The notes under the pieces: model-generated | The model's input: only the letters and a program-made list of their open reading frames with translations | Database searches by the model: none | What the model was told of the DNA's origin: nothing | Shown: piece after piece, positions 7,401-37,030 of the stretch | How the letters are laid out: the number at the start of each line of letters is the position of its first letter | Position numbering within the stretch: the first letter of the stretch is position 1 | Program-made: the position numbers and the translations under genes | Source of the DNA: a virus | Lineage: Duplodnaviria; Heunggongvirae; Uroviricota; Caudoviricetes | Direction: 5' to 3' (one strand) | IMG/VR virus record: IMGVR_UViG_2574179769_000003 | Coordinates: 13,748 to 77,747 of that record | DNA length: 64,000 nucleotides

Positions 7401-7606
7401 TGAATATACTTCATTCCAGCTTTTTCAATTTCATCTTTTTTATGTTTCCATTCATATATGCATCCATGTTCTGCAAAGCCAAACGACTTCATACCAAGCG
7501 ATTTAGCATAATCAATATATTGATAGTATTTGTTAATACTATCAATATTTGTTACACCATTCGATAAATCTGAATGAACATGATAAAGAACATAATTTTT
7601 AGACAT
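4425..7606 (-). CDS. dnaE: DnaE-type DNA polymerase III alpha subunit with N-terminal PHP domain (frames joined across an A7 run near 7055..7062)
   Basis: PHP motifs YVLYHVHSDLSNG and, in the shifted frame, IAGTDTHAL; polymerase core GYSRGSVSGSVIAYLLGITEID...LADIDTDW. Probable ATG start at 7606..7604 (MSKNYVLYHVHS). One extra A in the A7 run restores a continuous frame. Confidence 0.8.
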
Positions 7607-8789
7607 CTGATAATAACTCCTCAAGCATATTATCAAAATCAATGTCAATTTCATTAGAAGTATTGTTATCACCATTACTAATAGATAGCAAATCAATACC
7701 TCCCTTTTCATTTTCTAATTGTTTTAAATATTCTTTATAAGGCAACAATAAATTAGCACTATAACCACACAACGTTGAGTAATAATAGCTTTGAGTTTTT
7801 ACACTATCCTTATCATCCCAAAACAATTTAGAATCATGACTAAGTTTATACATATCAGTTTTTTCATTGATTTCATCAATTGTATTGATTAATAAATCTT
7901 TCCACTGTTGTAATAATTCTTGTGTTACTTCAACATACACCCAACAGTCTTCAAATATAAATTTTTCTTTTATGTCATCAGGCAAACAGTCTATTGAGTT
8001 ATCTTGCATTACTTTCATTATATATTCATCGACTTGTTCACTATCGTATTTAAAATGTTTTAACCAAACCATTATATTAGACACCAGTGATTCGCCAAGT
8101 TTACATCTTTCGATTTCTCTAACTTTTTTCTTGCCATTTTTTTGTTCTATAGTAACATTTTGATACTTTAGAAAATTCCAGCCAATCTTAATTTTATTTA
8201 ATGGAATACCCAACTGATGAATTCCAATTGCATACAGTGCCAGCTGACCACATTCTTCCAATGCTTTTTTACCTTTATAGATAGTGCTTGTTTTAAAATC
8301 CCCAATTATACAATTACCATCTTTTGTTGTAATCAATATATCAATATATCCTTGCAATACAATATCATGTCTTAACTTTATCAAAATAAATTGCTCAATC
8401 ATTTTTTTATCAACTATTGATTTATGATTTTTAAAAAAATGTGTTAAATCTTCGTTATATTTAATTTTTATATTATTGTTTTTTTCGGAATTATTACGGT
8501 CAAATTTCAAATCAGCCAAATCAATATTTAACATCCAGCCATCTCGAAAACGCTCTATCATATCATTATATTGAATTTTCCCCTCATAATACTCCTCTAA
8601 AACACCGTGTGCTACCCCGCCTAGGGGTGCATACGCACAATTATTATTATCTTCAGGAATATGTTTAACGTATCTTAAAAAATATTCATAATGTGATGTC
8701 ATATAGGAATGCACCCTAGACCAACTCCACAGAAAATCAACAGAGTATTTTTTACATATTCCTGAAAGTTCTTCTTTTGTCTTTCTCAA
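7599..8789 (-). CDS. putative RecB-family PD-(D/E)xK exonuclease
   Basis: 396 aa; IGDFKTSTIYKGKK and QLALYAIGI resemble the DxK and QhxxY motifs of Cas4/RecB-like nucleases; sits inside the replication module. Confidence 0.5.
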   Translation of the reverse strand: MRKTKEELSGICKKYSVDFLWSWSRVHSYMTSHYEYFLRYVKHIPEDNNNCAYAPLGGVAHGVLEEYYEGKIQYNDMIERFRDGWMLNIDLADLKFDRNNSEKNNNIKIKYNEDLTHFFKNHKSIVDKKMIEQFILIKLRHDIVLQGYIDILITTKDGNCIIGDFKTSTIYKGKKALEECGQLALYAIGIHQLGIPLNKIKIGWNFLKYQNVTIEQKNGKKKVREIERCKLGESLVSNIMVWLKHFKYDSEQVDEYIMKVMQDNSIDCLPDDIKEKFIFEDCWVYVEVTQELLQQWKDLLINTIDEINEKTDMYKLSHDSKLFWDDKDSVKTQSYYYSTLCGYSANLLLPYKEYLKQLENEKGGIDLLSISNGDNNTSNEIDIDFDNMLEELLSDV

Positions 8790-11856: not shown

Positions 11857-12999
11857 TTATTTAGTCAACTTTAATATCTCTTTAGATAAGTTCAAATCAG
11901 TAATTTCTTGTAAATTAGTAAGTCCATATTTTTTTAGAATTAATAATATTGGAGTAACAACTTCTTTGTTTGTTTTATTTTTTACAATAAATGCTTGAAT
12001 GGTTTCAATATTTTCTTTTAATTCTTTTTCTTCTTTGATAATTTTTTGTTGAACTTCGATTTCTTTCATTCTTTTCTTAATTTCTTCATCTTGCTCCATT
12101 TTTGTTTCATCAAATGATTTATTTGATTTAGCCTGTTCTGCCTTAATTGCATCTGTTAAAGCTTTAATGAATTCAACAGAATCAAACTCTATTTCAGGTA
12201 CAATTTCCGCAAATCTTGAACCAGAGTCGATTACATATGCATCATCTCTAAATTTAATTTTTCGAGATTGCGATTTTAAAGTCTTTTTAATTACTTCGTT
12301 TCCTTTGAAATCTTTTTTTCCTGTTTTTTCTGATGAGATAGTTCTGTCAAAGTATGCCAATGCTAAGAAATGAACTTTCTTTTTTAAACCATTGAAATAA
12401 ACTTTTTCAACATCATTTGTCAATGTCGTATATGTTTCACCACTAACAGTGTCAGTGATTTCTTTTGGTTTCACGTGACCAATTACAATAAAGTTAATAC
12501 CAACTTCTTTAAATTCCCACAAAGCATCAAGCATTAGTTCCAACGCTTTCTTTTGTCCTCTTTGATATCCCTTCCAAGCTGCATCGATTGATTTGACTTT
12601 AGCATCTGGATATTCTTTATTACTTTGACGAATAGATTCAGCTTCTGCTAATTCAATAAAACCATCATATGTATCTATAACAACTACTTTTAAGTCTTTA
12701 TAATCAGTGGTTCTATTTTCAATAATGTCATCTTTAATATCTTCAAAAGTATCCCAATCTGATACGTCTTCAGCAATAATTCCCTCAATGGCATCTGCAC
12801 CACTTTCTTTTCCCATTTCTAAGAATAAATAGCCATCTTCGCCAACTAATTCTTCACAAACCTCTTTAATTAATGTTGTATTGTGAGTAACAATATAGTC
12901 TTTTTGTAATATATGTATGATCGGGGTTATCAACCATAATACATTGTGATTCTTCTTTTCCAACCAATTTAATATCTCTAATGATTTTAGAATATTCAA
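11857..12999 (-). CDS. hypothetical protein; possible Sak4/AAA_24-like recombination ATPase core with an aberrant N-terminus
   Basis: VVVIDTYDGF (Walker-B-like) and FIVIGHVKPKE strands resemble AAA_24. No Walker A is found in any frame at the N-terminus, so the call is weak; an N-terminal frameshift is possible. Confidence 0.3.
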   Translation of the reverse strand: MNILKSLEILNWLEKKNHNVLWLITPIIHILQKDYIVTHNTTLIKEVCEELVGEDGYLFLEMGKESGADAIEGIIAEDVSDWDTFEDIKDDIIENRTTDYKDLKVVVIDTYDGFIELAEAESIRQSNKEYPDAKVKSIDAAWKGYQRGQKKALELMLDALWEFKEVGINFIVIGHVKPKEITDTVSGETYTTLTNDVEKVYFNGLKKKVHFLALAYFDRTISSEKTGKKDFKGNEVIKKTLKSQSRKIKFRDDAYVIDSGSRFAEIVPEIEFDSVEFIKALTDAIKAEQAKSNKSFDETKMEQDEEIKKRMKEIEVQQKIIKEEKELKENIETIQAFIVKNKTNKEVVTPILLILKKYGLTNLQEITDLNLSKEILKLTK

Positions 13000-13014
13000 A
13001 ACTTCTCTCTTTAT

Positions 13015-14049
13015 TTAACTTGTTTTTATGTTTTGTGGATAAATGCAATTTTCATAATCACCATAAATTGACATAGAATATTCAATTTCATTGCTACACT
13101 TTTTTGTACTGTTCTCATCTGTATGGTTATATTCGGTAATCTTAACAATATAACCCAACGATCTTGCTAAACTAGAAATATCATTGGCAAGATGCTTAGA
13201 ATAAATACTAATGCAAATATTATTCCCTCTTGCTATATGCCCCGTATTAATGATTCCACTTAATAAAGCAAGCCTATTTTCAATAGATGAATAAATATAA
13301 ATTTCAGGAACAAACTTCTCTTTTGACCCACGATTATTTAATCCTAATTTCTTAATTACTTCTTTGAAAGTATTCGATTTATCTGTTTCACATACAATAC
13401 TTGCTTGTTTATAATTATCAAAACATCTTGTATGAAGTTTAACATTTAAGGATGAAATCTCATTAGCTAACTCTTCAAATAGCTCATTCTCTGAGTTTGT
13501 AAAAGTATATACATCACCAGTGAACCCACCATTACCCAGCATTAATCCTAGAGCATAGGGCGATAATGGTAATTTATTTTGATTATCAAATTCAATAGGT
13601 AAGTTTATAGGGACACTATATTTATAGTTAAATTTACTTTTTTTATTAATGTTGTTAACGGGAGTTTTATAATCTTTTAAAATTTCCTCCAATGTTACTA
13701 CTTTATAACGATAGTCATTATATTTTCCCATATTTGAACGTTGCTTTGCTGTTTGCACTGTCCATAAATGTTTTAGTCCACATCGTGTAGAAGTACCATC
13801 TTCAAATGTTACTTCATAAACATCTTTTACACCTTGTGGGAAAACTCCAGTTACGGGATATGTTTTACCATCTCTACCATAAACCAAGTCTCCAATTTGA
13901 ATCTCTCCCATTGGTTTCCAACCTGCGCTTGTAAGCACTGGTTCTGAGATAGGTTGTTCTTTACCAATCTTAGGTTCTCCTAATAAGATTGTATTATATG
14001 ATAAAGGATCAACTTTTACGTGATTCTTTTTACCAAATCTTCTAACCAT
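13015..14049 (-). CDS. Hint-domain LAGLIDADG homing endonuclease (free-standing)
   Basis: Hint-like N-terminus (VLTSAGWKPMGEIQIGDLVYGRDGKTYPVTGV); two LAGLIDADG-type motifs LGLMLGNGGF and LLSGIINTGH. The start overlaps the upstream stop (TAATG), so it is a separate gene rather than an in-frame intein. Confidence 0.6.
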   Translation of the reverse strand: MVRRFGKKNHVKVDPLSYNTILLGEPKIGKEQPISEPVLTSAGWKPMGEIQIGDLVYGRDGKTYPVTGVFPQGVKDVYEVTFEDGTSTRCGLKHLWTVQTAKQRSNMGKYNDYRYKVVTLEEILKDYKTPVNNINKKSKFNYKYSVPINLPIEFDNQNKLPLSPYALGLMLGNGGFTGDVYTFTNSENELFEELANEISSLNVKLHTRCFDNYKQASIVCETDKSNTFKEVIKKLGLNNRGSKEKFVPEIYIYSSIENRLALLSGIINTGHIARGNNICISIYSKHLANDISSLARSLGYIVKITEYNHTDENSTKKCSNEIEYSMSIYGDYENCIYPQNIKTS

Positions 14050-15185
14050 TAGTCACCTAATTCTTTCAATAATTTTTCTAAATCTGCCGCTTCTTCATCA
14101 TCCAATTTTGGATCAACTACTTTCATTTCTGTATCTTGTTTTTTATTTGTTGCTTTAGGCAAGATAAATTCTAAATCAGATTCTTCATATTTTTTTCTAT
14201 CAATTTGAAGTTTTGGAGTTTTTGTTCCATCTTCATTAATAATCATTTTGATGTCAGGTTTGATTAACATCATTCTTCGTTCTCTATTTGAACTTACTGA
14301 ACATTTATCCAATGCTTCGTCAAGTTCATATATTCCCATATCAACCATTTGTTTAATATCATCATCCAAATCGTCATATGTAGCTGTTACAATGGTTCCA
14401 CCTTCAATAAATCTTCCTACAAAAGTAATTGCTGTAACGCCCTCTTTAACTTTGAATAATAATCGTATTAATTTTAAATATTTTTCATTATCTGAATTAT
14501 CTATTTTATATTCAAAGTTCACTTTAAATGGATAAGTTTGTTTTACATCAACGCCTTTATAATCTTTAAGGTAATCCGCCACATAACCATCTATTAATAA
14601 ACATCCTTTATCTTTGTCATATTTTTTAACATCTAGGCAGTCCTTATCGAATAATACTGTTTGAGTAAATTTGGCATCATATTCTTCTGGTTTTTTATTT
14701 GAAAGATAGATTGCTTTAATTTCTTTATTTACCACTACATTATCATCATTATTAAATGAATATTTTAAATTTCCTTTGACATTAACAATCATACCTTCTT
14801 CAAGGTTTTCTTTAATATAATTTATAAAATCATAAGAACTCAAAAATTCTTCAATAACTAAATTATCATTAACATCCTTTTTTAAGCCTGCTTTATAGAA
14901 ACAATTTTTACCAATAGTCATTAAAATATCTTTATTGTCTCTATCTTCCCAAGCAATATCAAATCTGTTATCAAAATCATCATATCCATTTTCATCTTTA
15001 CCATGAACATATACTAAATTTTTACGATCTTTTCCATAACCACCCATTGCTTTCCCGTATATCACACCACATTCTTCTCCGCAGTTGATTCCAAGATTTA
15101 GGCTGTTATAAATCCAATCACTCTTTTTTGACTTTTCATCTATTTGGAAAGTAAATTTATTAAATTTAGCAACTTTCCCCACCAA
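14049..15185 (-). CDS. hypothetical protein
   Basis: 378 aa acidic protein in the replication module; no recognisable motifs. Confidence 0.5.
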   Translation of the reverse strand: MVGKVAKFNKFTFQIDEKSKKSDWIYNSLNLGINCGEECGVIYGKAMGGYGKDRKNLVYVHGKDENGYDDFDNRFDIAWEDRDNKDILMTIGKNCFYKAGLKKDVNDNLVIEEFLSSYDFINYIKENLEEGMIVNVKGNLKYSFNNDDNVVVNKEIKAIYLSNKKPEEYDAKFTQTVLFDKDCLDVKKYDKDKGCLLIDGYVADYLKDYKGVDVKQTYPFKVNFEYKIDNSDNEKYLKLIRLLFKVKEGVTAITFVGRFIEGGTIVTATYDDLDDDIKQMVDMGIYELDEALDKCSVSSNRERRMMLIKPDIKMIINEDGTKTPKLQIDRKKYEESDLEFILPKATNKKQDTEMKVVDPKLDDEEAADLEKLLKELGD

Positions 15186-15280
15186 ACTAAAGCTTGATGC
15201 ACCTCTTTTTAATCCATTTTGTTTTCTGCCATTAAATCCTCCATTTTCTTTTTTTTATTTTAAATTTATTTTCAACGTTA

Positions 15281-15556
15281 CTATCGGACTACTTTTTCTT
15301 CGTCATCTTTCACGTTTGAAACTTTTTTGTCATACTCAGCCATAATTGCCATGTATTTATTTTCTGAAATTTCTTCTAAACAATCATGGTCATGCCATTC
15401 GCCACAATTTGTTTGTGTATAATAAATCACACCTTCCTGATCAAAATACCTATATTCATATTTACCGACATTTTTCAAATATGGCTCTAATGATGGTTTT
15501 ACAACATTCTTTTTTATACTATTTTCTAATAGTAGCTTATGCCACTCTTCCATCAA
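15281..15556 (-). CDS. hypothetical protein
   Basis: 91 aa ORF. Confidence 0.4.
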   Translation of the reverse strand: MMEEWHKLLLENSIKKNVVKPSLEPYLKNVGKYEYRYFDQEGVIYYTQTNCGEWHDHDCLEEISENKYMAIMAEYDKKVSNVKDDEEKVVR

Positions 15557-15831
15557 TTAGATTTTTGTTTCAATTTATAAAACCAAGTGCCATCAACAAT
15601 TGTTTTATTTTTATCTAGTTGTTTTTTGACGCTAAAATTTAACTGTCCTTTTCTCAAATAAAATGAGTCAAACAAAGGTATAAATGCGCTTGTATCTATG
15701 TTATTTTCTTTAAGAAATTCATTAGCCAATTCGACCATTTTCTTTTTATGTTCTTTCCAAGTAAAATATTTTTTGTGTAAGGGCGAATCTCTAACAACTT
15801 TAAAGAAACGTTCTTTTCTTTCTTCCATCAA
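15553..15831 (-). CDS. hypothetical protein
   Basis: 92 aa ORF, 4-bp overlaps on both sides. Confidence 0.4.
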   Translation of the reverse strand: MMEERKERFFKVVRDSPLHKKYFTWKEHKKKMVELANEFLKENNIDTSAFIPLFDSFYLRKGQLNFSVKKQLDKNKTIVDGTWFYKLKQKSN

Positions 15832-16757
15832 TCTGCTACTTTCACGAATAGACTAGGCTTAATTAATTTAATTTGATTTGTAATCTCAGCTTGCAAAACT
15901 TTAAAATTTATAGTTGGTTTTTTATAGTCTTGAACAATATTCCAAATTTCTTCATCAATTATAGTGTGATATAGTACACTTAATAAACATGGAATTAATC
16001 TTTTTCTATCATTTATAGGATCAAAATTATCACCATTTATAATTTTTTGATATTCTTTTTCAACTAATGCCTCTGTTACATATTTTTTAGATATTTTTGT
16101 TTCAATAGAAGTTGTATCTTCGTTTAGTTGAGCTTTGGATTTTTTACCAGAGTTATTGAGATACTCACTATGAATTGCTTTTGCCCATGTTTTTCTACCA
16201 TACTTGTTAACATATTGATAATTTTTAATTACAATTCCTTCACCATACCCCATACCTTCTTTAATAAGGTAGGTATTAGAGTTTAATTCTTTAACAATTT
16301 GATCAATTGTAGGATTCTCTAATATATTAATAACTGGAATATAATCAATCTTATATTTATCTAGTAGTGGACTATATTCTTCAAAACTTAAATATCTTAT
16401 ATCTTCGCCTAAATCTTCGCAAACGTCAAATACATAAAATTTATCCCATGCATCATCATTGTAAGTTTTTAGCGAATGGGGTTTTAAAAACTCTCCAAAC
16501 AACCTGTGGTTAGGATGTTCTCTTAAATAATTTGTTATATTTTCATTTTTATTATAATGATTATAAAACCCTTGATTATCTTGAAATAATGTCAGCTCTC
16601 TTCGTCTACTTCCACAACCTAGTGTTCCATCGTCATTTAACCAAATTGAAGCATTAGTTCCATCAATTTTAGGTTGGATAAATACCTTTCCATTTAAAAT
16701 ACCCTCGGTTTCAGAAGTTCCGAGTCTTGCAATATGTTGATACTTTTTAAACTCCAT
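15828..16757 (-). CDS. Rnl2-family RNA ligase (nucleotidyltransferase KxDG motif)
   Basis: IQPKIDGTNASIW (KxDGxN lysine-adenylylation motif), FGEF and FYVFDV motifs; the order matches T4 Rnl2-like ligases. Confidence 0.65.
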   Translation of the reverse strand: MEFKKYQHIARLGTSETEGILNGKVFIQPKIDGTNASIWLNDDGTLGCGSRRRELTLFQDNQGFYNHYNKNENITNYLREHPNHRLFGEFLKPHSLKTYNDDAWDKFYVFDVCEDLGEDIRYLSFEEYSPLLDKYKIDYIPVINILENPTIDQIVKELNSNTYLIKEGMGYGEGIVIKNYQYVNKYGRKTWAKAIHSEYLNNSGKKSKAQLNEDTTSIETKISKKYVTEALVEKEYQKIINGDNFDPINDRKRLIPCLLSVLYHTIIDEEIWNIVQDYKKPTINFKVLQAEITNQIKLIKPSLFVKVAD

Positions 16758-16773
16758 TTACTATTCCTTCTCC

Positions 16774-16986
16774 TTATCTTAATACCAAACTAAATTGTTC
16801 TTTTTTAGATGCTCCAGGCGTAATCCAAATAGGCTGATGGTTATCATCTTCTATTCTAATATCGTGAGTACTGTTCTTAAGCCTTAAAATTTTATAAATC
16901 TTACCTACTGTCAAACTTGGTCTATTTGTTTTCACACATTTCATATATTGATATTTTTTTCTTTTTTTGTTTCTTTCTTTTATCAT
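16774..16986 (-). CDS. hypothetical small basic protein
   Basis: 70 aa ORF. Confidence 0.35.
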   Translation of the reverse strand: MIKERNKKRKKYQYMKCVKTNRPSLTVGKIYKILRLKNSTHDIRIEDDNHQPIWITPGASKKEQFSLVLR

Positions 16987-16987
16987 T

Positions 16988-17012
16988 TATATATATATAT
17001 ATATATATATAT
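16988..17012. repeat. (TA)n dinucleotide microsatellite, ~12 units
   Basis: tatatatatatatatatatatatat read directly in the sequence. Confidence 0.9.
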
Positions 17013-17063
17013 TTCAATATACATTGTTAACATCATTTAACTCATTCTCGATTCATATTAATA

Positions 17064-17600
17064 TTTTCCCATTTTTCTACCTCATTCTTTCTATTTATTT
17101 CTATTCATCAATTTTCTTTTTTTACATATTTTTCCCATTTATACAATTTACAAACTGTATATTTGTTTATTTTCCTAAACATCAAGATACAATAAAACCA
17201 TTCTGATATCTTTAACATATACCAGTACTTGCACTTATTCTTCTACGACACCAATAATTTCAACTTTCTCACATCTGATTTTACCATCTGTTTGATAAGG
17301 TACGCACACACCCATTAGCCATTCGTTTCTAATAAGAACTTTATATATTGTTCGACCTGAAGTTGTTATGTCTCCTTTAACCCAATCTAAAGTTGCTACA
17401 TTTATACCGCACCCACAGCCACTTGTTCTATTGAAATTGACATTTTCTTCTATTACTTCTCCTATTTCAATTTTCCAATTAGGATTTGGTTTATAGCATA
17501 GACCAAATGTTTTATAGGCAATATATCCCTCATCAGTTTTTTCGAAATATTTATTCATAATTTCGATTGCTGATGGTAAGCCTTTTGCATTACTTAAATT
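17064..17600. repeat. copy 1 of a ~0.53 kb direct repeat (3' end of a pentapeptide-repeat gene plus the downstream region); copy 2 at 51062..51605
   Basis: Near-identical to 51062..51605; the differences I found on a read-through comparison are single-base homopolymer length changes (T7/T8, T4/T3, A4/A5, T3/T4, T4/T5). Confidence 0.85.
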
Positions 17601-18125
17601 TGCACCTCTTAAATCTGCATTATTTAAATCTGCATATCTTAAATTTGCATTACTTAATTTTGCACCACTTAAATTTGCATTACTTAATTTTGCACCACTT
17701 AAATCTGCATTATTTAAATCTGCATATCTTAAATTTGCATTACTTAATTTTGCACCACTTAAATTTGCATTACTTAATTTTGCACCACTTAAATTTGCAT
17801 ATCTTAAATTTGCACCACTTAAATCTGCACCTCTTAAATCTGCATTACTTAAATTTGCATTACTTAATTTTGCACCACTTAAATTTGCATATCTTAAATT
17901 TGCACCACTTAAATCTGCATAACTTAAATCTGCATTACTTAAATCTGCATTACTTAAATCTGCATAACTTAAATCTGCATTACTTAAATCTGCATTACTT
18001 AAATTTGCATTAATTAAATTTGCGTCAATTAAATCTGCTCTAGCTCCACCATATTCATTATTTAACCATTTTTCATGAAGATTTAATATTTTATTTAGTT
18101 CTTCTTGTGTTATTTGTTTTAGCAT
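17235..18125 (-). CDS. pentapeptide-repeat protein with a Cys-containing C-terminal domain
   Basis: About 35 tandem A(D/N)LSx pentapeptides encoded by 15-bp DNA repeats (17580..18050); C-terminal domain ...[18 protein letters not shown]...; paralogs at 51278..52110 and 55268..55522. Confidence 0.85.
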
Positions 18126-18156
18126 TTTTATTTTCTCCTTGTTTTTTTAATGTTTC

Positions 18157-18897
18157 TTAGTTTGCTATATATTCAAAACATGGCATTGGTTGAAATTTAA
18201 ATAAATTTTTTTTATGCATTTTATCAATTGTGTTTTTAATATCTAAATCATCTATTTCCTCAGTGCGAATATATTTGTCTAAAATTTCATAGGAAAAACC
18301 AAAATTTTCTTCATCGGTTTTCCCACAAAGTCCATCAGTTGGAACTTTATCTATTAGTATATTGGATAGTCCCAATTCTTTGCCAATAAGTTTTACTTCT
18401 GTCTTTGTAAGTTTTGATAGTGGGCTAAAATCCCCAACACTATCTCCATATCTGGTTGAATATCCTATCCAATCCTCTGATAAATTACAAGTATTGACAA
18501 CTCTGCCATTAACCGATTGAGAATATGCATATAATGTAGCCATTCTAATTCTAGCAGGAAGATTTATAATAGTTTGTTTTGAAACCTCAACACTTGGTGG
18601 AAATTGATTATTAATAGCAGTTACTGCATTAAATATATTCATAACATCAAAACTGATCCCAAGTTGTCCACAAAGAAAATAAGAATAGCTGATATCTTCT
18701 TGTTCTCCACAAGGCATAAGCAATCCTCTTACTCTTTCTTTCCCTAATGCCTCTACACATAAGGCTGCTGCAACTGAAGAGTCAACTCCGCCAGATATTC
18801 CAACAACAGCATTACAATCTTTGCCATTTTTATCAAACCAATCTTTTATAAAAGAAACTATTTCATCTTTTACTTTTTTAGCATCAAACTTATACAT
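18157..18897 (-). CDS. nadE: NH3-dependent NAD+ synthetase (PP-loop ATP pyrophosphatase)
   Basis: VGISGGVDSSVAAALCVEALG PP-loop SGGxDS motif and overall NadE-like layout. Confidence 0.7.
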   Translation of the reverse strand: MYKFDAKKVKDEIVSFIKDWFDKNGKDCNAVVGISGGVDSSVAAALCVEALGKERVRGLLMPCGEQEDISYSYFLCGQLGISFDVMNIFNAVTAINNQFPPSVEVSKQTIINLPARIRMATLYAYSQSVNGRVVNTCNLSEDWIGYSTRYGDSVGDFSPLSKLTKTEVKLIGKELGLSNILIDKVPTDGLCGKTDEENFGFSYEILDKYIRTEEIDDLDIKNTIDKMHKKNLFKFQPMPCFEYIAN

Positions 18898-18898
18898 G

Positions 18899-19303
18899 CT
18901 AAATCACTCCTTTTTCTATTTTTTCAATTAATGTATTAAGATGATCATATACCATAGGCAATCCACCTCTATCGTCTAAATAAGCATTGGCATATATCTT
19001 ACGTCCATTTACTTTTACCATTGAATTACAATTAATCCCATCATAAGGAATTCCATATCTATTGCAATAAGATTTTATTTCGGAAAGTTTATCTACTCCA
19101 TTACCCGTAAAGATAATAATTTGTGCATATCTATCCCATCTTTTTAATAAGTTAATAACATTTGTATATGTTCGTCCAAGCCTATGGAAATCATAAATTG
19201 TATCATCAAAATCTACAGCAATGATTAATTTGCCATATTTTATAAACTCATCTTCTAATCTTTGATAACAATTATCTGGGCTTAAATAATAGTCCATTAT
19301 CAA
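18899..19303 (-). CDS. small HAD-superfamily phosphatase (DxDxT)
   Basis: IIAVDFDDTIYDF motif I, C-terminal YLDDRGG acidic motif; size and motifs are compatible with a nucleotide/polynucleotide phosphatase. Confidence 0.45.
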   Translation of the reverse strand: MIMDYYLSPDNCYQRLEDEFIKYGKLIIAVDFDDTIYDFHRLGRTYTNVINLLKRWDRYAQIIIFTGNGVDKLSEIKSYCNRYGIPYDGINCNSMVKVNGRKIYANAYLDDRGGLPMVYDHLNTLIEKIEKGVI

Positions 19304-19731
19304 ATCTCACTTCTAACTTTCATTAAAATTTTGCCTAGTTTGTTTTCTCCTACAATATCTTTACACTTAGGACACTCACAATTGCCCCAAATATTATCAT
19401 GCCAACCAGTCGTTCCTTCAATCAATTCATGAGGATATGTATCTAATAACTTTTTCTTTAAATATTGGTGTTGAGTAAATTTTGCTTTAACAATTTCATA
19501 CATATATTTTTCTTTTACTTTTTCCCAATCATCTCTTAAAAGTATTTTTCTCCCTAGTTTCTTGGCTTCGACAGGATTTAAATTTTGAAATTTAATCTTT
19601 TCACTAATTCTAGTTATTTTTTGTGCTTGAAAAGCAGCTTCATTATTAAGATAAACTATCCCATCATATTCAATTGGTGTTTCATAATAATTGCTTAAAA
19701 AACGATATTTACCTCTAAAGTTATCAATCAT
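19300..19731 (-). CDS. NADAR (YbiA-like, DUF1768) domain protein
   Basis: FLSNYY...IEYDGIVYLNNEAAFQAQK...GWHDNIWGNC resembles the YbiA/NADAR fold. Confidence 0.55.
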   Translation of the reverse strand: MIDNFRGKYRFLSNYYETPIEYDGIVYLNNEAAFQAQKITRISEKIKFQNLNPVEAKKLGRKILLRDDWEKVKEKYMYEIVKAKFTQHQYLKKKLLDTYPHELIEGTTGWHDNIWGNCECPKCKDIVGENKLGKILMKVRSEI

Positions 19732-21195
19732 TAAAATTCTCCTTTATTTAATCTTTGACGAATTTGTTCAAATGATTCTTCTCTTTTTAACATACCATTG
19801 CTAAACATTTTTTCTAATGACGTATTTTCTGTAGAAACTAAACAATTATATCCATCTACGCATTTATATCCATCTTCTGTTTTAATAACAGCACAACAAC
19901 CTTTATGAGATTTCTTTAATTTTGATGTGTCTGTTTTAGGATTTTTATAAATAGGGAATTTGAAATTTCCAACTTCCCCATAAGTAGCCTTCATAGCAAT
20001 ACCAAATGTATCTCTTGTATTAACAATAAACTTTCCATCATCTTCAAAAATAGCATGGAAGCAGAACGCTCCTACTCCAAATACAATGTTGTTAGCAGCA
20101 AACCCTAGTTTATATAACTCTTCATAGATTTCTTCGACTTTATTTATAGTACATCCATCCCCATAAATAATGCCAATATGAGGATCTAATACTTTATATC
20201 CTTTACTATTGATACTTCCACCAAATGTTTTCCACAAGAGTTTAATTGTTTCAATTGATATTTCAACAATATCTCCGCTATCAGGTCTAATTAATAACTT
20301 TCCATTGTGATTCATAATTTCTTCTTTGCATTGAGGTAAAATATTTTTTACTATATTCCAATAATCATAAGTATCAGATACCATGCTGAATGAAGTATTA
20401 GGATATAATTCTGTTAATAATCTTTTTACAAAAGTGATTTCATCGCCATCAACTGAGAAGTTAGCTCCCATAACTGCATGCTCTGTAGATACAGCTCCAA
20501 TTCCAATATTTTTATCAGCATTATAATATTCTCTAATATATTGCAATGCGGGGATTGTACTTGTCTTATCAAAAGATAACAGCCATGATGCAGATGTTCT
20601 AATAGAATCTTCTAAACATGACATACCTCTCATTCCAAAGTCTGACATAGCCATTCTAGAATCCATATTATCAACTGTTAGATCATAATATTTGTTTGCT
20701 ACTTCCTTATAAATCTTTCCAATAGTAGCGTAATTACATGTTGGCCATAATTCTACTTGTAGAATACATTCTAGCCATTGTACAACCCACGCAAAATCTG
20801 GATGAGTATTTGTCAATTCAATACAAGGAACTCCCATATTAACAATACTTCCTTCAGGCAATGCTCTAATTAGAATGGGTAGATACCCTAATTTATGAAG
20901 ATTTATGATTGCGTCCAAATCATAGTTTCCTTCGCCTAATTGTGTGTCCATATAGGAATTATATTCTCCAATAACCTCATCTATTGGTTTGTTAAAAAAG
21001 TTATTATTAAAAATCTTCGACAAGATACTTTTTGATAAACTCCTGCAAACCAAAGAACACCATTTTATCATACTTCTCTGACATCGCTTTTCTAGGTGTC
21101 CAATAAGAAACCAATTTTGTTAAATCCTTAGGAAACATTCGCAGATGTGTTTGTTTATATGTATCCGACAATAATAAGGTTGTTAAATTTTTCAT
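19731..21195 (-). CDS. nadV: nicotinamide phosphoribosyltransferase family protein (NadV/NAMPT or Namat-like); frames joined across a T5 run near 21010..21020
   Basis: N-terminal fragment LLSDTYKQTH...VFFGLQEFIKKYL matches the NAMPT N-terminus; the main ORF has LIRPDSGD and EHAVMG-region motifs. T5 to T4 fuses the frames (LVEDFNNNFFNKP). Confidence 0.8.
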
Positions 21196-21209
21196 TTCAT
21201 TTTCCTTTC

Positions 21210-22040
21210 TTAAACCTTTATAACTTCAATTTTCTCGTGTTTTCCAGTAAATAAACTATTAGTAGTAAACAGTCTTTCTACTGTGCCATCTTCCAGTGAT
21301 TTAATTAAAGTTCCTCTTTCTCTATCTAAAATACTATTTTCGCAATGACTTACATAAGCATAAATCTTTTTTGCTCCAAGTTCTTTTAATTTATTTGCAC
21401 CATAATACATTGATCCACCATAACTACAAATATCATCAAACATTAATACGGTCTTGTCTTTCAAATCAATTTCGTTTGTAATTATTTCAAGCCCCATAAT
21501 TTTCCCGCTTGTCCAATCACGATGTTTTACTCCATAACAAGTTTTAAACCCACGAAATAAATCTTCGTATTTTTTACTAGCCCCATTATCGGGGAAATAA
21601 ACAATTAAGTCATCTTCATTAATATTTTCGTTAATATTAATATCTCTTAATATAAGTCGTCTTACAAATACATTTAAGTCAAGTAAATATAAATTATCAA
21701 TCAAAGCTTCGCTAACTGGCGAATGTGGATCAATTGATAGCACTTTTTTAAATCCTAATGAATTTATAATATTGGCGAAATATTTTAATGTAAATACATC
21801 TCTCTTTGTCTTGATTCTATCCATTCTTGCGTTAGGAATATATGGCATATGTAATTCATTTTCTTTTCCACCATGCTCTTTTAAATAATTTGTAATATAA
21901 ATTAAAGCAATTAATTCTTCTTCATTTTCATAATACCATTTGATAATATTAACTGTTTTAATTTCGCATGAAGGAGTTAAATGTAATGTGCCATCAGGAA
22001 AATGATTTAGTTTTAATTTACTATCATTAATTAAAATCAT
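21210..22040 (-). CDS. prs: ribose-phosphate pyrophosphokinase family protein (Prs- or Adps-like)
   Basis: VLMFDDICSYGGSMYYGANKLKELGAKKIYAYVSHC corresponds to the PRPP-binding loop of Prs-family enzymes. Confidence 0.7.
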   Translation of the reverse strand: MILINDSKLKLNHFPDGTLHLTPSCEIKTVNIIKWYYENEEELIALIYITNYLKEHGGKENELHMPYIPNARMDRIKTKRDVFTLKYFANIINSLGFKKVLSIDPHSPVSEALIDNLYLLDLNVFVRRLILRDININENINEDDLIVYFPDNGASKKYEDLFRGFKTCYGVKHRDWTSGKIMGLEIITNEIDLKDKTVLMFDDICSYGGSMYYGANKLKELGAKKIYAYVSHCENSILDRERGTLIKSLEDGTVERLFTTNSLFTGKHEKIEVIKV

Positions 22041-22041
22041 T

Positions 22042-22573
22042 TTATATCACCTCTATTTGGCAGGAATTTATTGTTTTAAGTGCATATTTATGATTTTCTG
22101 AAGTTGTTCCAGCACAACACTTTGAATTAATAACAATATGTATTTCTGGACAGAACGTCTTAATTAGCAATGCGTTACTTACTACACAGATATCAGTACA
22201 TAATCCAACAATTTCAATATCAGTAAACTGATGTTTTTTTTACATATTGAGCTAATTTTACTGACCCAAATGTTTTCTTTTCAAATAATTGTTTTGGTTT
22301 AGGTTTAATTAATTTTAATATTTCTCCATTCAAACACCAACCATAGCTCCCCTTAATACAATGAATTATTGGTAAATTTATACCTTCGTTTGTATTGAGA
22401 TAATTCTCGTTATGTGTATCTAAAGTAAATACTATTCTTGAATCAGGCTTGTCTTTATATTCTTTAATTTTATCTATAACATTTGGTAAAATTGCCCTAG
22501 CTTCATTTGTTCCCAAAGAACCATCAATAAAGTCATTTTGCATATCCACCACAATTAATAATTTCTTTTTCAT
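22042..22573 (-). CDS. pncA: isochorismatase-family cysteine hydrolase, nicotinamidase (PncA)-like; frames joined across an A8 run at 22232..22239
   Basis: N-terminus LLIVVDMQNDFIDGSL...TLDTH; the shifted C-terminal part has IVGLCTDICVVSNALL with the catalytic Cys. A7 instead of A8 fuses the frames. Confidence 0.6.
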
Positions 22574-22582
22574 TTCTTTCTC

Positions 22583-23338
22583 CTATTGTTCTAGCATAAC
22601 TAAATTGTTAATATAATCTCTTTCATCTGTAAATAATGGTATGTTATAATCAATAACCCAATTTCCATCACCATCTTTAATACAACAAACACCTCTTTGT
22701 AATTCATTGGGTAATTTATCCCAATGAACACCTTCCTCAACAGACAGTTTCTCTTTTAATTCATCACAATTCAAGCCTTGCATTTCATTATGTGAGAATC
22801 TAGATTGAGCCAATGCTTGAATACTATTTCTAATAGCATCCTGTTGTCTCCAAATCAAGCAGTTCACAACTTCATGCTTAGGCAAATTAAATGCCCTTGA
22901 ATCAAATGAAGCTTTAAAGCATCTCTTTTCCCATAAATTTTCTTCATCTGGAAAATATACCGCACTAAAACAATTTTTTGATTCAACTTCTTGATTGAAA
23001 TATAAAGTGGCTAAAGCTGCACTTGTTGAAACCATTTTTTGAACTTTATTATCAAACCAAGCATCGCTGTTGATATTTTTATAGTCTACTAAAACAAGTG
23101 TTATCTCATCGCTTTGACAATAAGCCAAAACGCATCCTTGAATTTGTTGACATAATTTTTTCATTGTATGCTTCATAACATCACAAAAGTCTATATCAAA
23201 CGGTTTATTTAGACCTTTAGTAAATGTATGGAAAGCTTTGCCATCAACACGAATAATAACAGGCAATCTTCTTAACAGCTTTGTTTGTGATTGATTTTCG
23301 TATTCTTTCATACGATTTCCTAATTTTGTTTTATCCAT
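22583..23338 (-). CDS. Thg1-like protein (tRNA-His guanylyltransferase family, 3'-5' nucleotidyltransferase)
   Basis: RLPVIIRVDGKAFHTFTKGLNKPFD matches the Thg1 palm-domain signature (VRxDGRxFHxF...KPxD). Confidence 0.6.
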   Translation of the reverse strand: MDKTKLGNRMKEYENQSQTKLLRRLPVIIRVDGKAFHTFTKGLNKPFDIDFCDVMKHTMKKLCQQIQGCVLAYCQSDEITLVLVDYKNINSDAWFDNKVQKMVSTSAALATLYFNQEVESKNCFSAVYFPDEENLWEKRCFKASFDSRAFNLPKHEVVNCLIWRQQDAIRNSIQALAQSRFSHNEMQGLNCDELKEKLSVEEGVHWDKLPNELQRGVCCIKDGDGNWVIDYNIPLFTDERDYINNLVMLEQ

Positions 23339-23717
23339 TTAGACTCCTTTAAATCTCCATTTTAATTCTCACTTTCATTAATATTATCGTTAAATAATTC
23401 ACCTAGTTTCTTAAACTCTAGATAGCTAATAGTTAACTCATAGAATAAAACACCTGTTTTTTTGACTAATTTGTTTACCATTTTAACTTCTTCGTTAGTT
23501 AATCCATTTTTTTGTTAAATCAACATACAAATCACAACTATTATTGTTCACAATCATCTTTCTCGATTGCAACTATTTCAGCAATTTTGTGATCAGTCTC
23601 ATCATAAATATCATCGTAACAGCCAGTTAATATTTTTTGCTTTGCATCTTCTAATGAATCAGCTTCAACATACCCCTTGCCAGTACATGTCATATTACAA
23701 GTAAATTTATAATACAT

Positions 23718-24944
23718 CTAACACTCCTCTAACCTTTCATTAATATATTTATCTTCCAAACACTCTGGCAAACTATCTTTTACAACCTCTTGAATGTATT
23801 TAAAACTGTAATCAGATACATCAATTGCAATATCATATAGTTCGTCATGTTCACTTTTAGATAATTTATTTTGTATTTTATATAATAATCTAAGTATTCT
23901 TCTGGTATTAGAGTCTTCAAATTCTGACCAAGCACTTGATTCATTTGATTGTTTTCTCATTTTATCTTTAGCCTCATCTAATATATCCTCTTTATCTTTT
24001 GCTTTAGCTACAATAGCTGATACATTTTCATTAGATTCAAATGTTTTGTACCCCTCTTTTTCTAATAATTTTCCTACACCAGAAGTAGCTACCATAACAT
24101 CATCATCAAGTTTATTTTCCTCATAAAATTTTGCAGTAAATTCTTTTGCAAAGTCATCATCTAAAAAATCTATTATGTCGGCTATTTTCGAAGTATCGGT
24201 ACTACTTCTAACTATCTGTTTGTAAATTTCATCATTACATTCTTCTACCGTAATTGCTGCTTTTGCAGTTAATTTTTTTAAATCATAATAGTTAATAGCC
24301 TTTCTATCACGATCCAATTTAACTTCACATGCATTAAAATTATATCCAAATTGAAAGTTGTCATCTGATTGTACATATAAACCCTCAACGAACATCTTCC
24401 CTTTGAATTTCATATCTAATAGAATTTGTCCATTAACTGTATTAATTACCTTTCCAAAATCATTTTCTATACAAGGAAAATCATTTTTTAAATCTTCAAA
24501 TACTAATGATGAAATGTTATTAATTTTAAATTCTAGATTATTATTATCTAAACATTTTGTTGATTTAACTTTTAATAATTCTGTATTAAAAGTATCAGAA
24601 TATTCAAAGTAAGGTTCCCATAAATATTCGCTATTAGAAATAACAACATTGTGATTATTTCTTAATAAGACCACTAATGCTAATTTATATCCTTCAGCAT
24701 TTCCGCCGATCATTTTATTATTATTAGTTTTATCACCAATTCCAAGAATTAGAGTACTTTTATCAATATATGTATGTTTATTCCCAATTAACAACTCTTC
24801 ATTTTCTACATCATAATTTACATACATTTTATGACCATCTTTTTCACTATCAATTGCGTTTTGAAGAATCTCTCTTATTGCATCACTAATTGTCCAACTA
24901 CTTACATAATTTTTACTCAAACTTAATTCATAGACTTCAGACAT
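23718..24944 (-). CDS. GHKL-type (HATPase_c-like) ATP-binding protein
   Basis: N-box-like ISDAIREILQNAIDS and G-rich IGGNAEGYKLALVV segment near the N-terminus. Confidence 0.45.
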   Translation of the reverse strand: MSEVYELSLSKNYVSSWTISDAIREILQNAIDSEKDGHKMYVNYDVENEELLIGNKHTYIDKSTLILGIGDKTNNNKMIGGNAEGYKLALVVLLRNNHNVVISNSEYLWEPYFEYSDTFNTELLKVKSTKCLDNNNLEFKINNISSLVFEDLKNDFPCIENDFGKVINTVNGQILLDMKFKGKMFVEGLYVQSDDNFQFGYNFNACEVKLDRDRKAINYYDLKKLTAKAAITVEECNDEIYKQIVRSSTDTSKIADIIDFLDDDFAKEFTAKFYEENKLDDDVMVATSGVGKLLEKEGYKTFESNENVSAIVAKAKDKEDILDEAKDKMRKQSNESSAWSEFEDSNTRRILRLLYKIQNKLSKSEHDELYDIAIDVSDYSFKYIQEVVKDSLPECLEDKYINERLEEC

Positions 24945-35416: not shown

Positions 35417-36235
35417 TTAAAATTTTGAACATGTGTTCCAAATTTCTTGTTGAAGTTTAACAACATCATTTTCAAATAACTTACAAGCAATTTCATACAA
35501 CTGAGGAATTTTGTGTAACCCTCTATCCATTTTATTTTTAATTTTTGGTTTAATGTTTTTATATTTATCAGAATCCATCCTCCGATTTAAGTCCATTTTA
35601 TATTTCATTTCAAATTCATGATAAAGCAGATTGTATCTTTCGCTATACTTATCGCTACCTTGTCTAATAATTTGAGTAATTCTTCTACGCTTTTCAGCTA
35701 AGTCAATATCATCAACTAATCCGCCTATTACATCTTCTTTATACATAACTTCCTTTGTTAATTCTTTATTTTCTAACCGTAAATTTTGACGCTCAGTTTC
35801 TTCTTCAATCCATCTCTTAGCTCGTTCAATTGGATTTTCGATCATATAGCTATCTTTAACTGTTCTAATCGAATAATTTCCCGTTTTTCTAATAGTAGGC
35901 AACACATCTTTGGCTACCCAAATTTGAAACTTCTTAGCAATATTATTATTTGCTTTCATAGCTAATAAATAAAATACTGGTTCAGGGATAAAAATGTCTT
36001 CCCCCACAAGTGGGGGAACGCCGAATTCGCTTAAGAAATTTTTAATTCTTTCCCACCTGATACTTGTATATTGTTTACCTTTTTTATTTTGAGTTTGAGT
36101 AAATCCTAATCCTCTAGCAGCATCTTCTAAACTTACTGAAATACTGCCATCATCATTGTACTTTACCCCAATATCCAATCCTAATTCTTTGTTTTTAAAT
36201 ATTTGTAATTCACACAATTCCAAAATTGCCTCCAT
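35417..36235 (-). CDS. Bro-N-domain antirepressor
   Basis: ELQIFKNKELGLDIGV... and FQIWVAKDVLPTIRKTGNY (the Bro-N W...VLPxIRKTG signature). Confidence 0.6.
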   Translation of the reverse strand: MEAILELCELQIFKNKELGLDIGVKYNDDGSISVSLEDAARGLGFTQTQNKKGKQYTSIRWERIKNFLSEFGVPPLVGEDIFIPEPVFYLLAMKANNNIAKKFQIWVAKDVLPTIRKTGNYSIRTVKDSYMIENPIERAKRWIEEETERQNLRLENKELTKEVMYKEDVIGGLVDDIDLAEKRRRITQIIRQGSDKYSERYNLLYHEFEMKYKMDLNRRMDSDKYKNIKPKIKNKMDRGLHKIPQLYEIACKLFENDVVKLQQEIWNTCSKF

Positions 36236-36237
36236 TC

Positions 36238-36630
36238 TTATTCTACAACCTTTAATACATTTGTAATTTCACCATTAAATTTATCTGAGTAATTAAAATC
36301 ACCCCATACATTAATTGCCAATGGATATGTTTCAGCAGCAGTTTCTCTGTTTACTAATACTTCGACCATTGAATTATCTGAACGATGATAGCATCCATTG
36401 ATCGTATCTTTATCGGCTTTTTCATCTAACTTGATAACTTTAAGCTCCCTTTTATTATCAAATTCAATGATAAATTTATCTCCGATGTTTCCGTACTTAC
36501 TCCCTAAGGCAACTCCTATGTATCCATCAATTGAATACAACAATCCATCTTCACCAACATTAATTAATCCACTCTTATTAATTAATTGGTACTGAGGAGA
36601 AGTTTTATCAGTGATTTTTTGGTAAGGCAT
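36238..36630 (-). CDS. hypothetical protein
   Basis: 130 aa ORF. Confidence 0.45.
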   Translation of the reverse strand: MPYQKITDKTSPQYQLINKSGLINVGEDGLLYSIDGYIGVALGSKYGNIGDKFIIEFDNKRELKVIKLDEKADKDTINGCYHRSDNSMVEVLVNRETAAETYPLAINVWGDFNYSDKFNGEITNVLKVVE

Positions 36631-36687
36631 CCATGATTTGTACCAGGATCCAGTTACACATACTCCTAATTTAACAGTTGGGATTCT

Positions 36688-36921
36688 TCAATTAGTTTTT
36701 TCTGAAATTAACTCATTTATTGAATTGATTTCACCAACTAACTTATTTAGCTCGTCTTTTAACCCCTCGTATTCAACTTTATCTTTTTTTAAAGATTCCA
36801 ATTCATGTTTGAGATGTTGATAATTACTAATATCTCTTTGATAATCCAAATAACTAATAAAGCTAGATACTAGCATAATAATCAGAACTGAAATTCCACC
36901 AATTATATATTTAAATTTCAT
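36688..36921 (-). CDS. small membrane/coiled-coil protein
   Basis: 77 aa; one N-terminal TM helix followed by a charged coiled-coil. Confidence 0.4.
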   Translation of the reverse strand: MKFKYIIGGISVLIIMLVSSFISYLDYQRDISNYQHLKHELESLKKDKVEYEGLKDELNKLVGEINSINELISEKTN

Positions 36922-36974
36922 AGTTCTCTCCTTTTTTATTTGAAGTCTTATTGGCCAAATATTTCTTCGCTGAT

Positions 36975-37030
36975 GTTCATTCGTGGAATCGAACCACCAT
37001 AGATTTAATCTACTGCACCTAACATGAACA
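36975..37030 (-). other. tRNA-like element, ~58 nt, lacking one arm (acceptor + single arm + T-arm); degenerate tRNA or att-site remnant
   Basis: Minus-strand reading: acceptor TGTTCAT/ATGAACA (7 bp) with T-arm GGTGG-TTCGATT-CCACG; only 25 nt lie between the acceptor and T stem; no CCA. Confidence 0.3.

Follow-up and report, generated by a model that had tools for sequence, protein, structure and literature searches.

An NAD+ operon between an RNA ligase and a Thg1-like protein: a probable extended form of NARP1 in an SPbeta-like prophage

What does a phage gain from an RNA ligase, a Thg1-like protein and a small phosphatase of the HAD superfamily that sit within one short run of genes? The question is raised by ten minus-strand genes at positions 15828-23338 of a 64,000-nucleotide stretch of DNA (the window; positions 13,748 to 77,747 of the IMG/VR virus record IMGVR_UViG_2574179769_000003). 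A sequence-only reading of this interval had seen in it a possible RNA-repair toolkit, reminiscent of the end-healing and sealing enzymes of T4 and lying next to a tRNA cluster. What that picture missed are the genes in between. In fact, leaving the HAD phosphatase aside, five of the seven genes that separate the ligase from the Thg1-like protein (TLP) are assigned by Pfam, PHROG and NCBIfam domains to the metabolism of nicotinamide adenine dinucleotide (NAD+): a nicotinamidase, a Prs-like protein, a NAMPT-like protein, a NADAR-domain protein and NadE.

We think that the interval is probably a composite counter-defence island. Its core would be an extended form of NARP1, a phage pathway that rebuilds NAD+; the HAD phosphatase would feed this pathway, and TLP and the ligase would be separate genes on its flanks. 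NARP1 itself is known, and we found no description of the extended form. The element that carries the island is an SPbeta-like prophage of Thomasclavelia cocleata.

NAD+ genes between the ligase and the Thg1-like protein

From position 22573 down to 18157, the core operon reads PncA, Adps-like, Namat-like, NADAR, HAD, NadE, on the minus strand like every gene from 13 to 58 kb of the window. The TLP gene (22583-23338; 251 aa) heads this run, which is tightly packed: from TLP through NadE the intergenic gaps do not exceed 14 nt, or the genes overlap. Nine nucleotides separate the TLP stop from the PncA start, and 14 nt separate the Adps-like gene from the Namat-like gene.

At the two ends of the operon stand enzymes of familiar type. 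The PncA-like nicotinamidase (22042-22573; 176 aa if intact; Pfam Isochorismatase) finds its best PDB matches mostly among nicotinamidases/pyrazinamidases (1ILW, 2H0R, 3O90, 3PL1), the top match, 5ZN8, having been deposited merely as 'isochorismatase'. NadE (18157-18897; 246 aa), an NH3-dependent NAD+ synthetase, matches Pfam NAD_synthase with E 6e-51 and scores 166 bits against TIGR00552, for which the cut-off is 64. The NADAR-domain protein (19300-19731; 143 aa; Pfam NADAR E 7e-27) is an accessory gene of the operon.

The identity of the operon turns on the two genes in its middle. The Adps-like protein (21210-22040; 276 aa) gives weak Pfam matches to Pribosyltran_N and Pribosyltran, belongs with PHROG 619 (E 8e-64) and scores beneath every NCBIfam Prs cut-off; against the validated Adps of phage FADO (gp078) it reaches E 9e-44, against B. 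subtilis Prs E 1.5e-18. On these similarity scores, rather than on a tree, we predict that this divergent homologue of ribose-phosphate pyrophosphokinase is the ADP-ribose (ADPR) pyrophosphokinase of a NARP1 system. Its neighbour, the Namat-like protein of the NAMPT family (19731-21195; 487 aa if intact; Pfam NAPRTase), scores 372 bits, once its reading frame is repaired, against the crystallised Namat of SPbetaL1 (9W5X/9W5W), compared with about 187 bits against human NAMPT and 158 against 7YQO, which we take to be a bacterial (Xanthomonas) Nampt although its PDB record names no organism. It keeps the equivalents of human D219 (SDFGMRG) and H247 (STEHAV), two residues whose roles in the human enzyme we take as given.

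In NARP1, Adps adds a pyrophosphate to ADP-ribose, and Namat links the resulting compound with nicotinamide into NAD+, rebuilding what Thoeris, DSR, SIR2-HerA and similar defences have destroyed (10.1101/2024.02.11.579819). Genes of the Adps clade adjoin Namat in 97% of cases, an arrangement that is rare for bacterial prs (10.1101/2024.02.11.579819). As in the NARP1 systems of phages Bas63, FADO and SPbetaL1 (Osterman et al. 2024), the Prs-like gene of the window lies directly beside a NAMPT-like gene of the phage. The likeness to SPbetaL1 goes further: the window element is SPbeta-like, and its NAMPT-like protein is closest to SPbetaL1 Namat. Unlike the two-gene NARP1, the operon of the window has six genes, with PncA ahead of the pair and NADAR, HAD and NadE behind it.

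We envision the following course of events. Host NADase defences would cleave NAD+ into ADP-ribose and nicotinamide; the Adps-like protein would pyrophosphorylate the ADP-ribose and the Namat-like protein would couple the product to nicotinamide, giving back NAD+ by a chemistry that has been shown for homologues and is presumed to hold here. NADAR and HAD would act as accessory 'feeder' enzymes, and PncA and NadE may add the first and last steps of deamidated (Preiss-Handler) salvage.

This arrangement is not peculiar to the window. Among the 80 IMG/VR loci closest to the window Adps, PncA is found in 79, Namat in 78 and NadE in 71, against 28 for NADAR, 21 for HAD, 3 for TLP and 2 for the ligase. 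The order of the genes is always PncA-Adps-Namat-[slot]-NadE, and it is conserved across about 80 contigs in which Namat identities fall as low as 32%.

The accessory slot and the HAD phosphatase

The slot between Namat and NadE holds a Macro-domain protein, a HAD protein or nothing. In 78 complete operons there were 48 with Macro only, 26 with HAD only, 4 with neither and none with both (Fisher p = 8e-17, a value that ignores phylogeny). Macro-NADAR, Macro-only and HAD architectures coexist within one cluster of Namats of at least 85% identity, and the swap between Macro and HAD must therefore be recent and repeated. The window is the sole operon that we saw with both NADAR and HAD, and a tblastn search found no Macro homologue in it, with matches at chance level only. 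The Macro proteins of the slot fall into the Poa1p/DarG/TARG1 class; they match Poa1p at E 1e-4 to 0.1, and their DarG-type matches are stronger.

What kind of enzyme fills the slot here? The HAD protein (18899-19303; 134 aa, or 132 aa in the NCBI call) is a capless phosphatase with a DFDDT sequence and all four HAD motifs (DxDxT; S/T; K; DD) on a Rossmannoid core, and these motifs are invariant in its family. The sequence-only reading was right to see a small DxDxT phosphatase, and the healing of RNA ends that it proposed for this protein does not fit: the protein has no match to Pfam HAD_PNKP (PF25109) and no fused or adjacent polynucleotide kinase, and its gene lies inside the NAD+ operon. 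Genuine PNKPs encoded beside TLP genes in other phages do match HAD_PNKP (E 3e-26). As for the capless HAD phosphatases of the BT0820 family (2OBB), the window protein falls far under the NCBIfam cut-off (30 against 165 bits).

The company that the family keeps points the same way. We compared 79 IMG/VR loci with a homologue of 35-66% identity, taking neighbours within 6 kb: Namat was present in 71 of them, Adps in 68 and Macro in none, and in 18 the HAD gene lay between Adps and Namat. A ligase of the window type occurred in a single one of the loci that carry NARP1 genes. Three unrelated GenBank phages, all cultured or complete, repeat this adjacency to NARP1 genes, namely the gut phage Phass-1 (nicotinamidase, Prs, Nampt, HAD), Bacillus phage Belinda (Adps, Namat, HAD) and the crAss-like phage cr111_1 (Namat, HAD, Adps). 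The family, PHROG 1238, extends to 190 GenBank phage records, including those of crAss-like, Bacillus and Klebsiella phages. Both PHROG 1238 and RefSeq (Belinda, Nemo, Nigalana, cr111_1, cr126_1) label it 'phosphoheptose isomerase', an annotation that looks wrong because both sequence motifs and fold mark the family as HAD phosphatases.

A precedent for a phosphatase at this place exists. Around 15% of NARP1 operons carry the Macro-domain phosphatase Adpp, and the operon put to the test there has the order Adps-Adpp-Namat; Adpp turns the ADPR-1''-phosphate made by aRES into ADPR, which rescues NARP1 and overcomes aRES (10.64898/2026.01.28.702374). Another accessory enzyme, RyDEP, feeds ADPR to NARP1 (10.64898/2026.05.28.727677). 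The operon of the window shares with this NARP1-AP system, that of Vibrio phage Gary (Osterman et al. 2026 preprint), the presence of a small accessory hydrolase among its genes, and the position of Adpp, between Adps and Namat, is the one held by HAD in the 18 related loci. Unlike NARP1-AP, the window has no Macro gene, and its enzyme has a HAD fold and an unrelated mechanism, with an aspartyl-phosphate intermediate.

Gene context and the chemistry of the family suggest that the HAD protein is most likely a phosphatase of ADPR derivatives rather than an RNA 3'-phosphatase. It stands where the Macro protein stands in other operons and never together with it, which is explained most simply by a non-homologous replacement. 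The enzyme would then do the job of the unrelated Adpp of NARP1-AP operons, removing the phosphate from a phosphorylated ADP-ribose, for example the ADPR-1''-phosphate made by aRES, to yield a substrate for NARP1. Besides ADPR-1''-phosphate, the candidate substrates are 2'-phospho-ADPR derived from NADP+, or NADP+ itself. Our literature search on NARP1 found no mention of a HAD protein in NARP1 operons.

Sister operons hold further accessory genes. Some add an NMNAT-like gene (L019, L155, L157). In L019 this adenylyltransferase gene separates Adps from Namat, a kinase-HD protein stands ahead of TLP, and NadE is followed by an SPFH protein and an NAD-dependent DNA ligase. L064/L087 carry a YqeY-like protein as an extra accessory gene, and calcineurin-like metallophosphatases lie between NadE and TLP in the L054 group and in L064/L087. 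The stretches concerned are L019 9096-18755, L054 5081-6549 and L064 9259-9990.

Nicotinamidase, NadE and the route to NAD+

Several observations weigh against an extended NARP1. Canonical NARP1 can do without PncA and NadE, and a nicotinamidase would even take nicotinamide away from Namat; the near-universal presence of both genes in this clade is unexplained by NARP1. Moreover, published Namats are described as having an adenine-clamp motif, GSX-phi-X-phi-X-phi-TRD, which is interrupted here. The clamp region of the window protein reads GAFCFH + AIFEDDGKFI + VNTRD: the Phe of position 3 is present, and position 7 is shifted by a 10-aa insertion, itself with two Phe, leaving the second aromatic residue unconserved in a linear alignment. 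Because the clamp motif is interrupted, use of ADP-ribose pyrophosphate (ADPR-PP) rather than phosphoribosyl pyrophosphate (PRPP) by the window pair is inferred from sequence, not secured. The insertion is common to 12 of the 14 PncA/NadE-linked Namats compared (L064 and Phass-1 are without it) and absent from FADO, Belinda and cr111. The statistic for the mutual exclusion of Macro and HAD is inflated by kinship among the metagenomic contigs, and the slot Macros are not established as orthologues of Adpp, so the substrates of Macro and HAD could differ. Finally, given how closely TLP is packed against the operon and how it recurs within 10 kb of NARP1, the TLP may have a direct functional tie to the NAD+ genes.

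One reading of PncA and NadE is that they form a second, parallel branch, speeding the first and last steps of the host's own Preiss-Handler route. A bolder proposal, which we hold to be unlikely, is that the operon reconstitutes NAD+ on its own by a deamido route. PncA would make nicotinate, the Namat-like protein would combine it with ADPR-PP into nicotinate adenine dinucleotide (NaAD), and NadE would convert NaAD to NAD+, possibly with the ammonia freed by PncA; HAD would replace Adpp, and no host enzyme would be required. The order of the genes does follow this pathway. There is also a subclade (L155, L157, L160, L166, L167) with GAFDFRG where other PncA/NadE-linked Namats have xDFxMRG, which has lost the Asp equivalent to human D219. 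We take this residue to dictate nicotinamide over nicotinate in human NAMPT, and the members of the subclade may be nicotinate-using enzymes. The Namat-like protein of the window, in its SDFGMRG, retains the Asp, which argues for nicotinamide and against a nicotinate step here.

Could the pair simply perform classical salvage through PRPP? We regard this as quite unlikely. The Prs-like protein would make PRPP and the NAMPT-like protein nicotinamide mononucleotide (NMN); host PncC/NadD and PncB would carry the intermediates to NaAD, phage PncA and NadE would boost the Preiss-Handler route, and HAD would act on a mononucleotide of the type of NMN or nicotinate mononucleotide (NaMN). The Pfam and NCBIfam names of the pair are indeed Prs and NAMPT/NAPRT, NadE makes sense only if there is flux through NaAD, and both the disrupted adenine clamp and the NMNAT-like gene of L019, L155 and L157 would suit such a route. 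In addition, Namat keeps an NMN-forming activity in vitro (PMC12774641), and Preiss-Handler clusters have been reported in gut jumbo phages (PMC11662467). Like these clusters and like KVP40 NadV/NatV (NARP2), the window combines phage PncA and NadE with a gene of the NAMPT family; unlike them, it has no NMN/NaMN adenylyltransferase and no PncB, and its Namat-type protein is paired with an Adps-like one. It is the scores and the neighbours that tell against PRPP: the Prs-like protein lies under all Prs cut-offs and closer to validated Adps, the score of the NAMPT-like protein against crystallised Namat is double that against any Nampt, and the adjacency of the two is the signature of the Adps clade. 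The Macro and NADAR proteins of the same operons, which handle ADPR, also point to ADP-ribose, and no NMNAT was found in the window.

RNA repair and the surrounding prophage

It remains to place the genes on the flanks, and with them the proposal that ligase, TLP and HAD form one heal-and-seal toolkit like that of T4 Pnkp/Rnl, which counters tRNA nucleases. In such a toolkit HAD would strip 3'-phosphates, TLP would rebuild 5' ends and the ligase would seal. Thg1, ligases and HAD phosphatases have already been grouped as phage RNA repair (Iyer et al. 2021; PMC7824862). We nevertheless consider a single toolkit very unlikely in the window, even though two of the three proteins are what they had been taken for.

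The Thg1-family enzyme is the first of these. TLP matches Pfam Thg1 (PF04446) with E 3.8e-32 and 111 bits against a cut-off of 29, matches PHROG 4717 with E 9e-87, and aligns over its full length with the TLP structure of B. thuringiensis, 4KGK (E 1e-58), which has equal length. Eukaryotic Thg1 proteins (Candida, human) reach E 2e-9 to 6e-7 only; by sequence, TLP is nearer to bacterial and archaeal TLPs than to the eukaryotic, tRNA-His-specific Thg1. The metal-binding Asp/Glu residues of the palm domain, on which the earlier assignment had been staked, are all present: an alignment of 6 diverse phage TLPs shows no change at D32 (RVDGKAF) or at D77-E78 (QSDEIT), and 4KGK and 3WBZ have the same carboxylate motifs at the corresponding places. 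In human Thg1 we take the metal-binding carboxylates to be D29, D76 and E77. TLP thus shares its length and its conserved Asp/Asp/Glu with the B. thuringiensis enzyme, which acts in tRNA 5'-end repair; unlike that enzyme, it is encoded by a phage and heads a run of NAD+ genes. The view that such proteins are rare in phages was overstated, as they occur in 164 (0.3%) of the 50,697 phage records and in no fewer than 548 stretches of IMG/VR; often they are already annotated, usually as tRNA-His guanylyltransferase.

The second is the RNA ligase (15828-16757; 309 aa), with Pfam RNA_ligase PF09414 at E 4e-19 and PHROG 548 at E 3e-42. A phmmer search of the ligase against the PDB found no match, so a family profile was required to reach structural relatives; built from 33 homologues, it matched only T4 Rnl2 entries (E 2e-5), in an alignment that takes in motifs I to IIIa. 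An AlphaFold2 model of the ligase (mean predicted local distance difference test, pLDDT, 88) has as its top Foldseek match full-length T4 Rnl2 (2HVR), then 2HVQ, over 340 columns with E 6e-13, and its predicted C-terminal domain is all-helical (helices 218-299), as in T4 Rnl2. The high global root mean square deviation of this match presumably reflects domain orientation. Invariant in the 33 homologues are K30-I-D-G-T-N (K30, D32, G33, N35; motif I), FGE (G88, E89), FYVFD (F107-D111), EG..K (E173, G174, K178) and W191/K193, where motifs IV and V were assigned by pattern and not by alignment to T4 Rnl2. Sequence profile and model together support an Rnl2-like ligase, as the KIDGTN motif had suggested. 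It shares its type and the KxDGxN motif with T4 Rnl2 and is remote from it, at 17-18% identity in the fold alignment.

Are the three then linked? We surveyed 87 TLP loci (35 lineages at 80% identity), within 10 kb of TLP, and 80 loci of the ligase family, where TLP was looked for within 8 kb. A ligase of the window type occurred at 0 of the 87 TLP loci, and TLP at 0 of the 80 ligase loci. The former count covers the window's own ligase family and was too narrow a test; clustering of the TLP neighbours revealed another family of ligases, with an OB fold, together with PNKP and kinase genes. In 11 of the 35 TLP lineages there is, no more than 10 kb from TLP and usually at 1-4 kb, a T4-like PNKP, a P-loop kinase-HD fusion or an RNA ligase of this OB-fold kind, and the commonest neighbours of the window's ligase family are a P-loop kinase (12/80 loci) and RtcB (8/80 loci). 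Since each family keeps RNA-repair neighbours elsewhere, a role for TLP and for the ligase in the repair of RNA ends is reasonable: TLP probably restores damaged tRNA 5' ends, and the ligase probably seals RNA nicks.

Within the window, TLP and the ligase are not a linked pair, nor are they linked to HAD. Neither polynucleotide kinase, nor 2',3'-cyclic phosphodiesterase, nor RtcB was found in the 64-kb window and the 10 kb beyond each of its ends, together 84 kb of a prophage of about 130 kb or more, which leaves a heal-and-seal pathway of the T4 type incomplete there. Searches of the window for genes that occur in sister loci (polynucleotide kinase, RtcB, Macro, NMNAT, NAD-dependent DNA ligase, metallophosphatase) likewise returned matches at chance level. 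Like T4, which sets Pnkp, Rnl1 and Rnl2 against the anticodon nuclease PrrC, the window has an Rnl2-type ligase and a DxDxT HAD phosphatase; unlike in T4, the phosphatase is free-standing and lies among NAD+ genes, which separate the three proteins. Homologues of this phosphatase sit in NARP1 operons at 71 of 79 loci, and the ligase lies about 1.4 kb downstream of the NAD+ operon in a unit of its own. This unit consists of the ligase gene and, upstream of it, a small open reading frame of unassigned function (16774-16986; 70 aa; no Pfam family), and it is preceded by a 248-nt gap with a TA dinucleotide repeat. The repeat has about 13 units, at about 16990-17018, and may be a slippage-prone promoter region. 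A scan for promoters and terminators was uninformative in such AT-rich DNA (51 promoter-like sites against 60 expected, 2 terminators against 2), and transcription units are therefore inferred from gene spacing alone.

TLP returns near NARP1 in several arrangements: in the window, L019, the L054 group, L064/L087, L157, L166, L242 and phage FADO. It is packed directly against the NAD+ operon in the window and in L019, and a kinase gene is present too in L019, the L054 group and L064/L087. We read this recurrence as a clustering of counter-defence functions. The Fusobacterium phages Fnu1 and FNU3 were tried as comparators and proved uninformative, with a TLP 46% identical and no NAD+ genes nearby. 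In the literature we searched, we found nothing usable on phage TLPs as counter-defence or on a defence nuclease that trims tRNA 5' ends.

The tRNA side of the toolkit fared little better. The tRNA-Met that had been noticed is real; the adjoining cluster and the degenerate tRNA-like elements are not borne out. By ARAGORN and Rfam the 64 kb contain a single tRNA, a tRNA-Met(CAT) at 37700-37776 on the minus strand (Rfam tRNA, 69 bits), 14.4 kb from the TLP gene. When Rfam was run permissively (E<=1) on 36000-39500 and 15000-24000, nothing else that resembles a tRNA came up. This tRNA is not part of the interval's gene unit. Nor is an enrichment of tRNAs near TLP genes clear, as a tRNA is present in 15 of 87 TLP loci against 14 of 80 Adps loci; the density per 10 kb is 0.52 in TLP loci against 0.21 in Adps loci, a difference that a few arrays account for. 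The tRNA-Met is followed, some 430 nt further downstream, by a skipping-rope RNA (Rfam RF02924; 37169-37272, minus strand; 48.9 bits against a gathering threshold of 36.7).

The last gene of the interval, between NadE and the ligase unit, encodes a pentapeptide-repeat protein (17235-18125; 296 aa; Pfam Pentapeptide E 5e-79) whose C-terminal domain is without a known family. It starts 31 nt past NadE, and elsewhere the gene lies outside the conserved operon; a homologue of its C-terminal part was found in 1 of 87 related loci. The number of repeats varies, with 296 aa in the window and 266 aa in a sister assembly (GCA_024622895.1). A second pentapeptide-repeat protein of the window is encoded at 51649-52110 (minus strand). 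In a megablast of the interval against the 50,697 phage records, only the pentapeptide-repeat DNA of Listeria phages matched (80-90%), its sole nucleotide similarity to known phages, and no close cultured relative was found.

The window, 28% G+C, belongs to contig PHNQ01000039.1 of GCA_002803405.1, and both its ligase and its HAD protein are 100% identical to proteins of Thomasclavelia cocleata. SPbeta-like markers lie nearby: homologues of YorH, YopX, YonG and YonJ, a DnaE-type polymerase, many antirepressors and an integrase. In this assembly two genes of the operon are interrupted, PncA by a 1-nt insertion in the A-run at 22234-22241 (giving 117 aa and a remainder) and the Namat-like gene by a 1-nt insertion in the T-run at 21009-21013. 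Both are unbroken in GCA_024622895.1 (176 and 487 aa), with which the repaired translations of the window are identical at 176/176 and 487/487 positions. A comparison over 20 kb shows 10 indels and 5 substitutions between the assemblies, and 1-nt indels break up other genes of GCA_002803405.1 as well: a PHP + DnaE polymerase, 1060 aa in the sister assembly, is read here as 184 + 845 aa, and an AAA_24 protein with an intein (Hom_end), 730 aa there, as 344 + 385 aa. Because the sister copies are intact and the polymerase and other genes are split alike, the frameshifts in PncA and the Namat-like gene are assembly errors, neither biology nor decay; a programmed frameshift and pseudogenisation were both rejected, as the assemblies differ mainly by indels. 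Gene calls of the window are unreliable at homopolymers. A tyrosine integrase in two adjacent reading frames (N-terminal SAM-like; catalytic), in a region outside the sister comparison, is probably split for the same reason. The places in question are 21009-21013, 22234-22241, 7052-8789, 11857-14049 and 39180-40161.

With the frames restored, a chance pile-up of prophage accessory or moron genes, packed without functional meaning and with PncA and Namat decaying as pseudogenes, is extremely improbable: the two interruptions and the mixed neighbours would suggest it, and it founders on the intact, identical copies of the second assembly and on a gene order shared by about 80 contigs.

Those neighbours are antirepressors, methylases and proteins of no recognised function. 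Two genes upstream of TLP, a 408-aa protein without a Pfam family (23718-24944, minus strand) has an N-terminus that, by eye, reads like a Bergerat (GHKL) ATPase fold (EILQNAIDS ... GGNAEGYKLA). The same prophage also encodes an anaerobic ribonucleotide reductase (NrdD/NrdG). Just beyond position 1 of the window lie proteins with Pfam Gad2 and Sequestin domains (L334, 10765-11412 and 18246-18737), which from their names we take to be anti-defence families, Gad2 being presumably anti-Gabija. The prophage appears to carry several counter-defence genes.

What does an extended NARP1 mean for these phages? Depletion of NAD+ is among the commonest anti-phage strategies of bacteria, and NARP1 and NARP1-AP are the known answers of phages to it. 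The most puzzling feature of the operon is the near-obligatory presence of PncA and NadE, which in phages of gut Firmicutes makes the two-gene picture of NARP1 incomplete and raises an enzymological question, namely whether the substrate of Namat is nicotinamide or nicotinate. For annotation the lesson is that a DxDxT phosphatase near an RNA ligase is not Pnkp-like by default, and that its context should be checked. Of the new leads, the most useful is the HAD family, which may be a second kind of phosphatase associated with NARP1. If HAD is indeed a second, unrelated solution to the same problem, the widespread PHROG 1238 family, now labelled 'phosphoheptose isomerase', would gain a function, and more phages would be predicted to resist defences of the aRES type.

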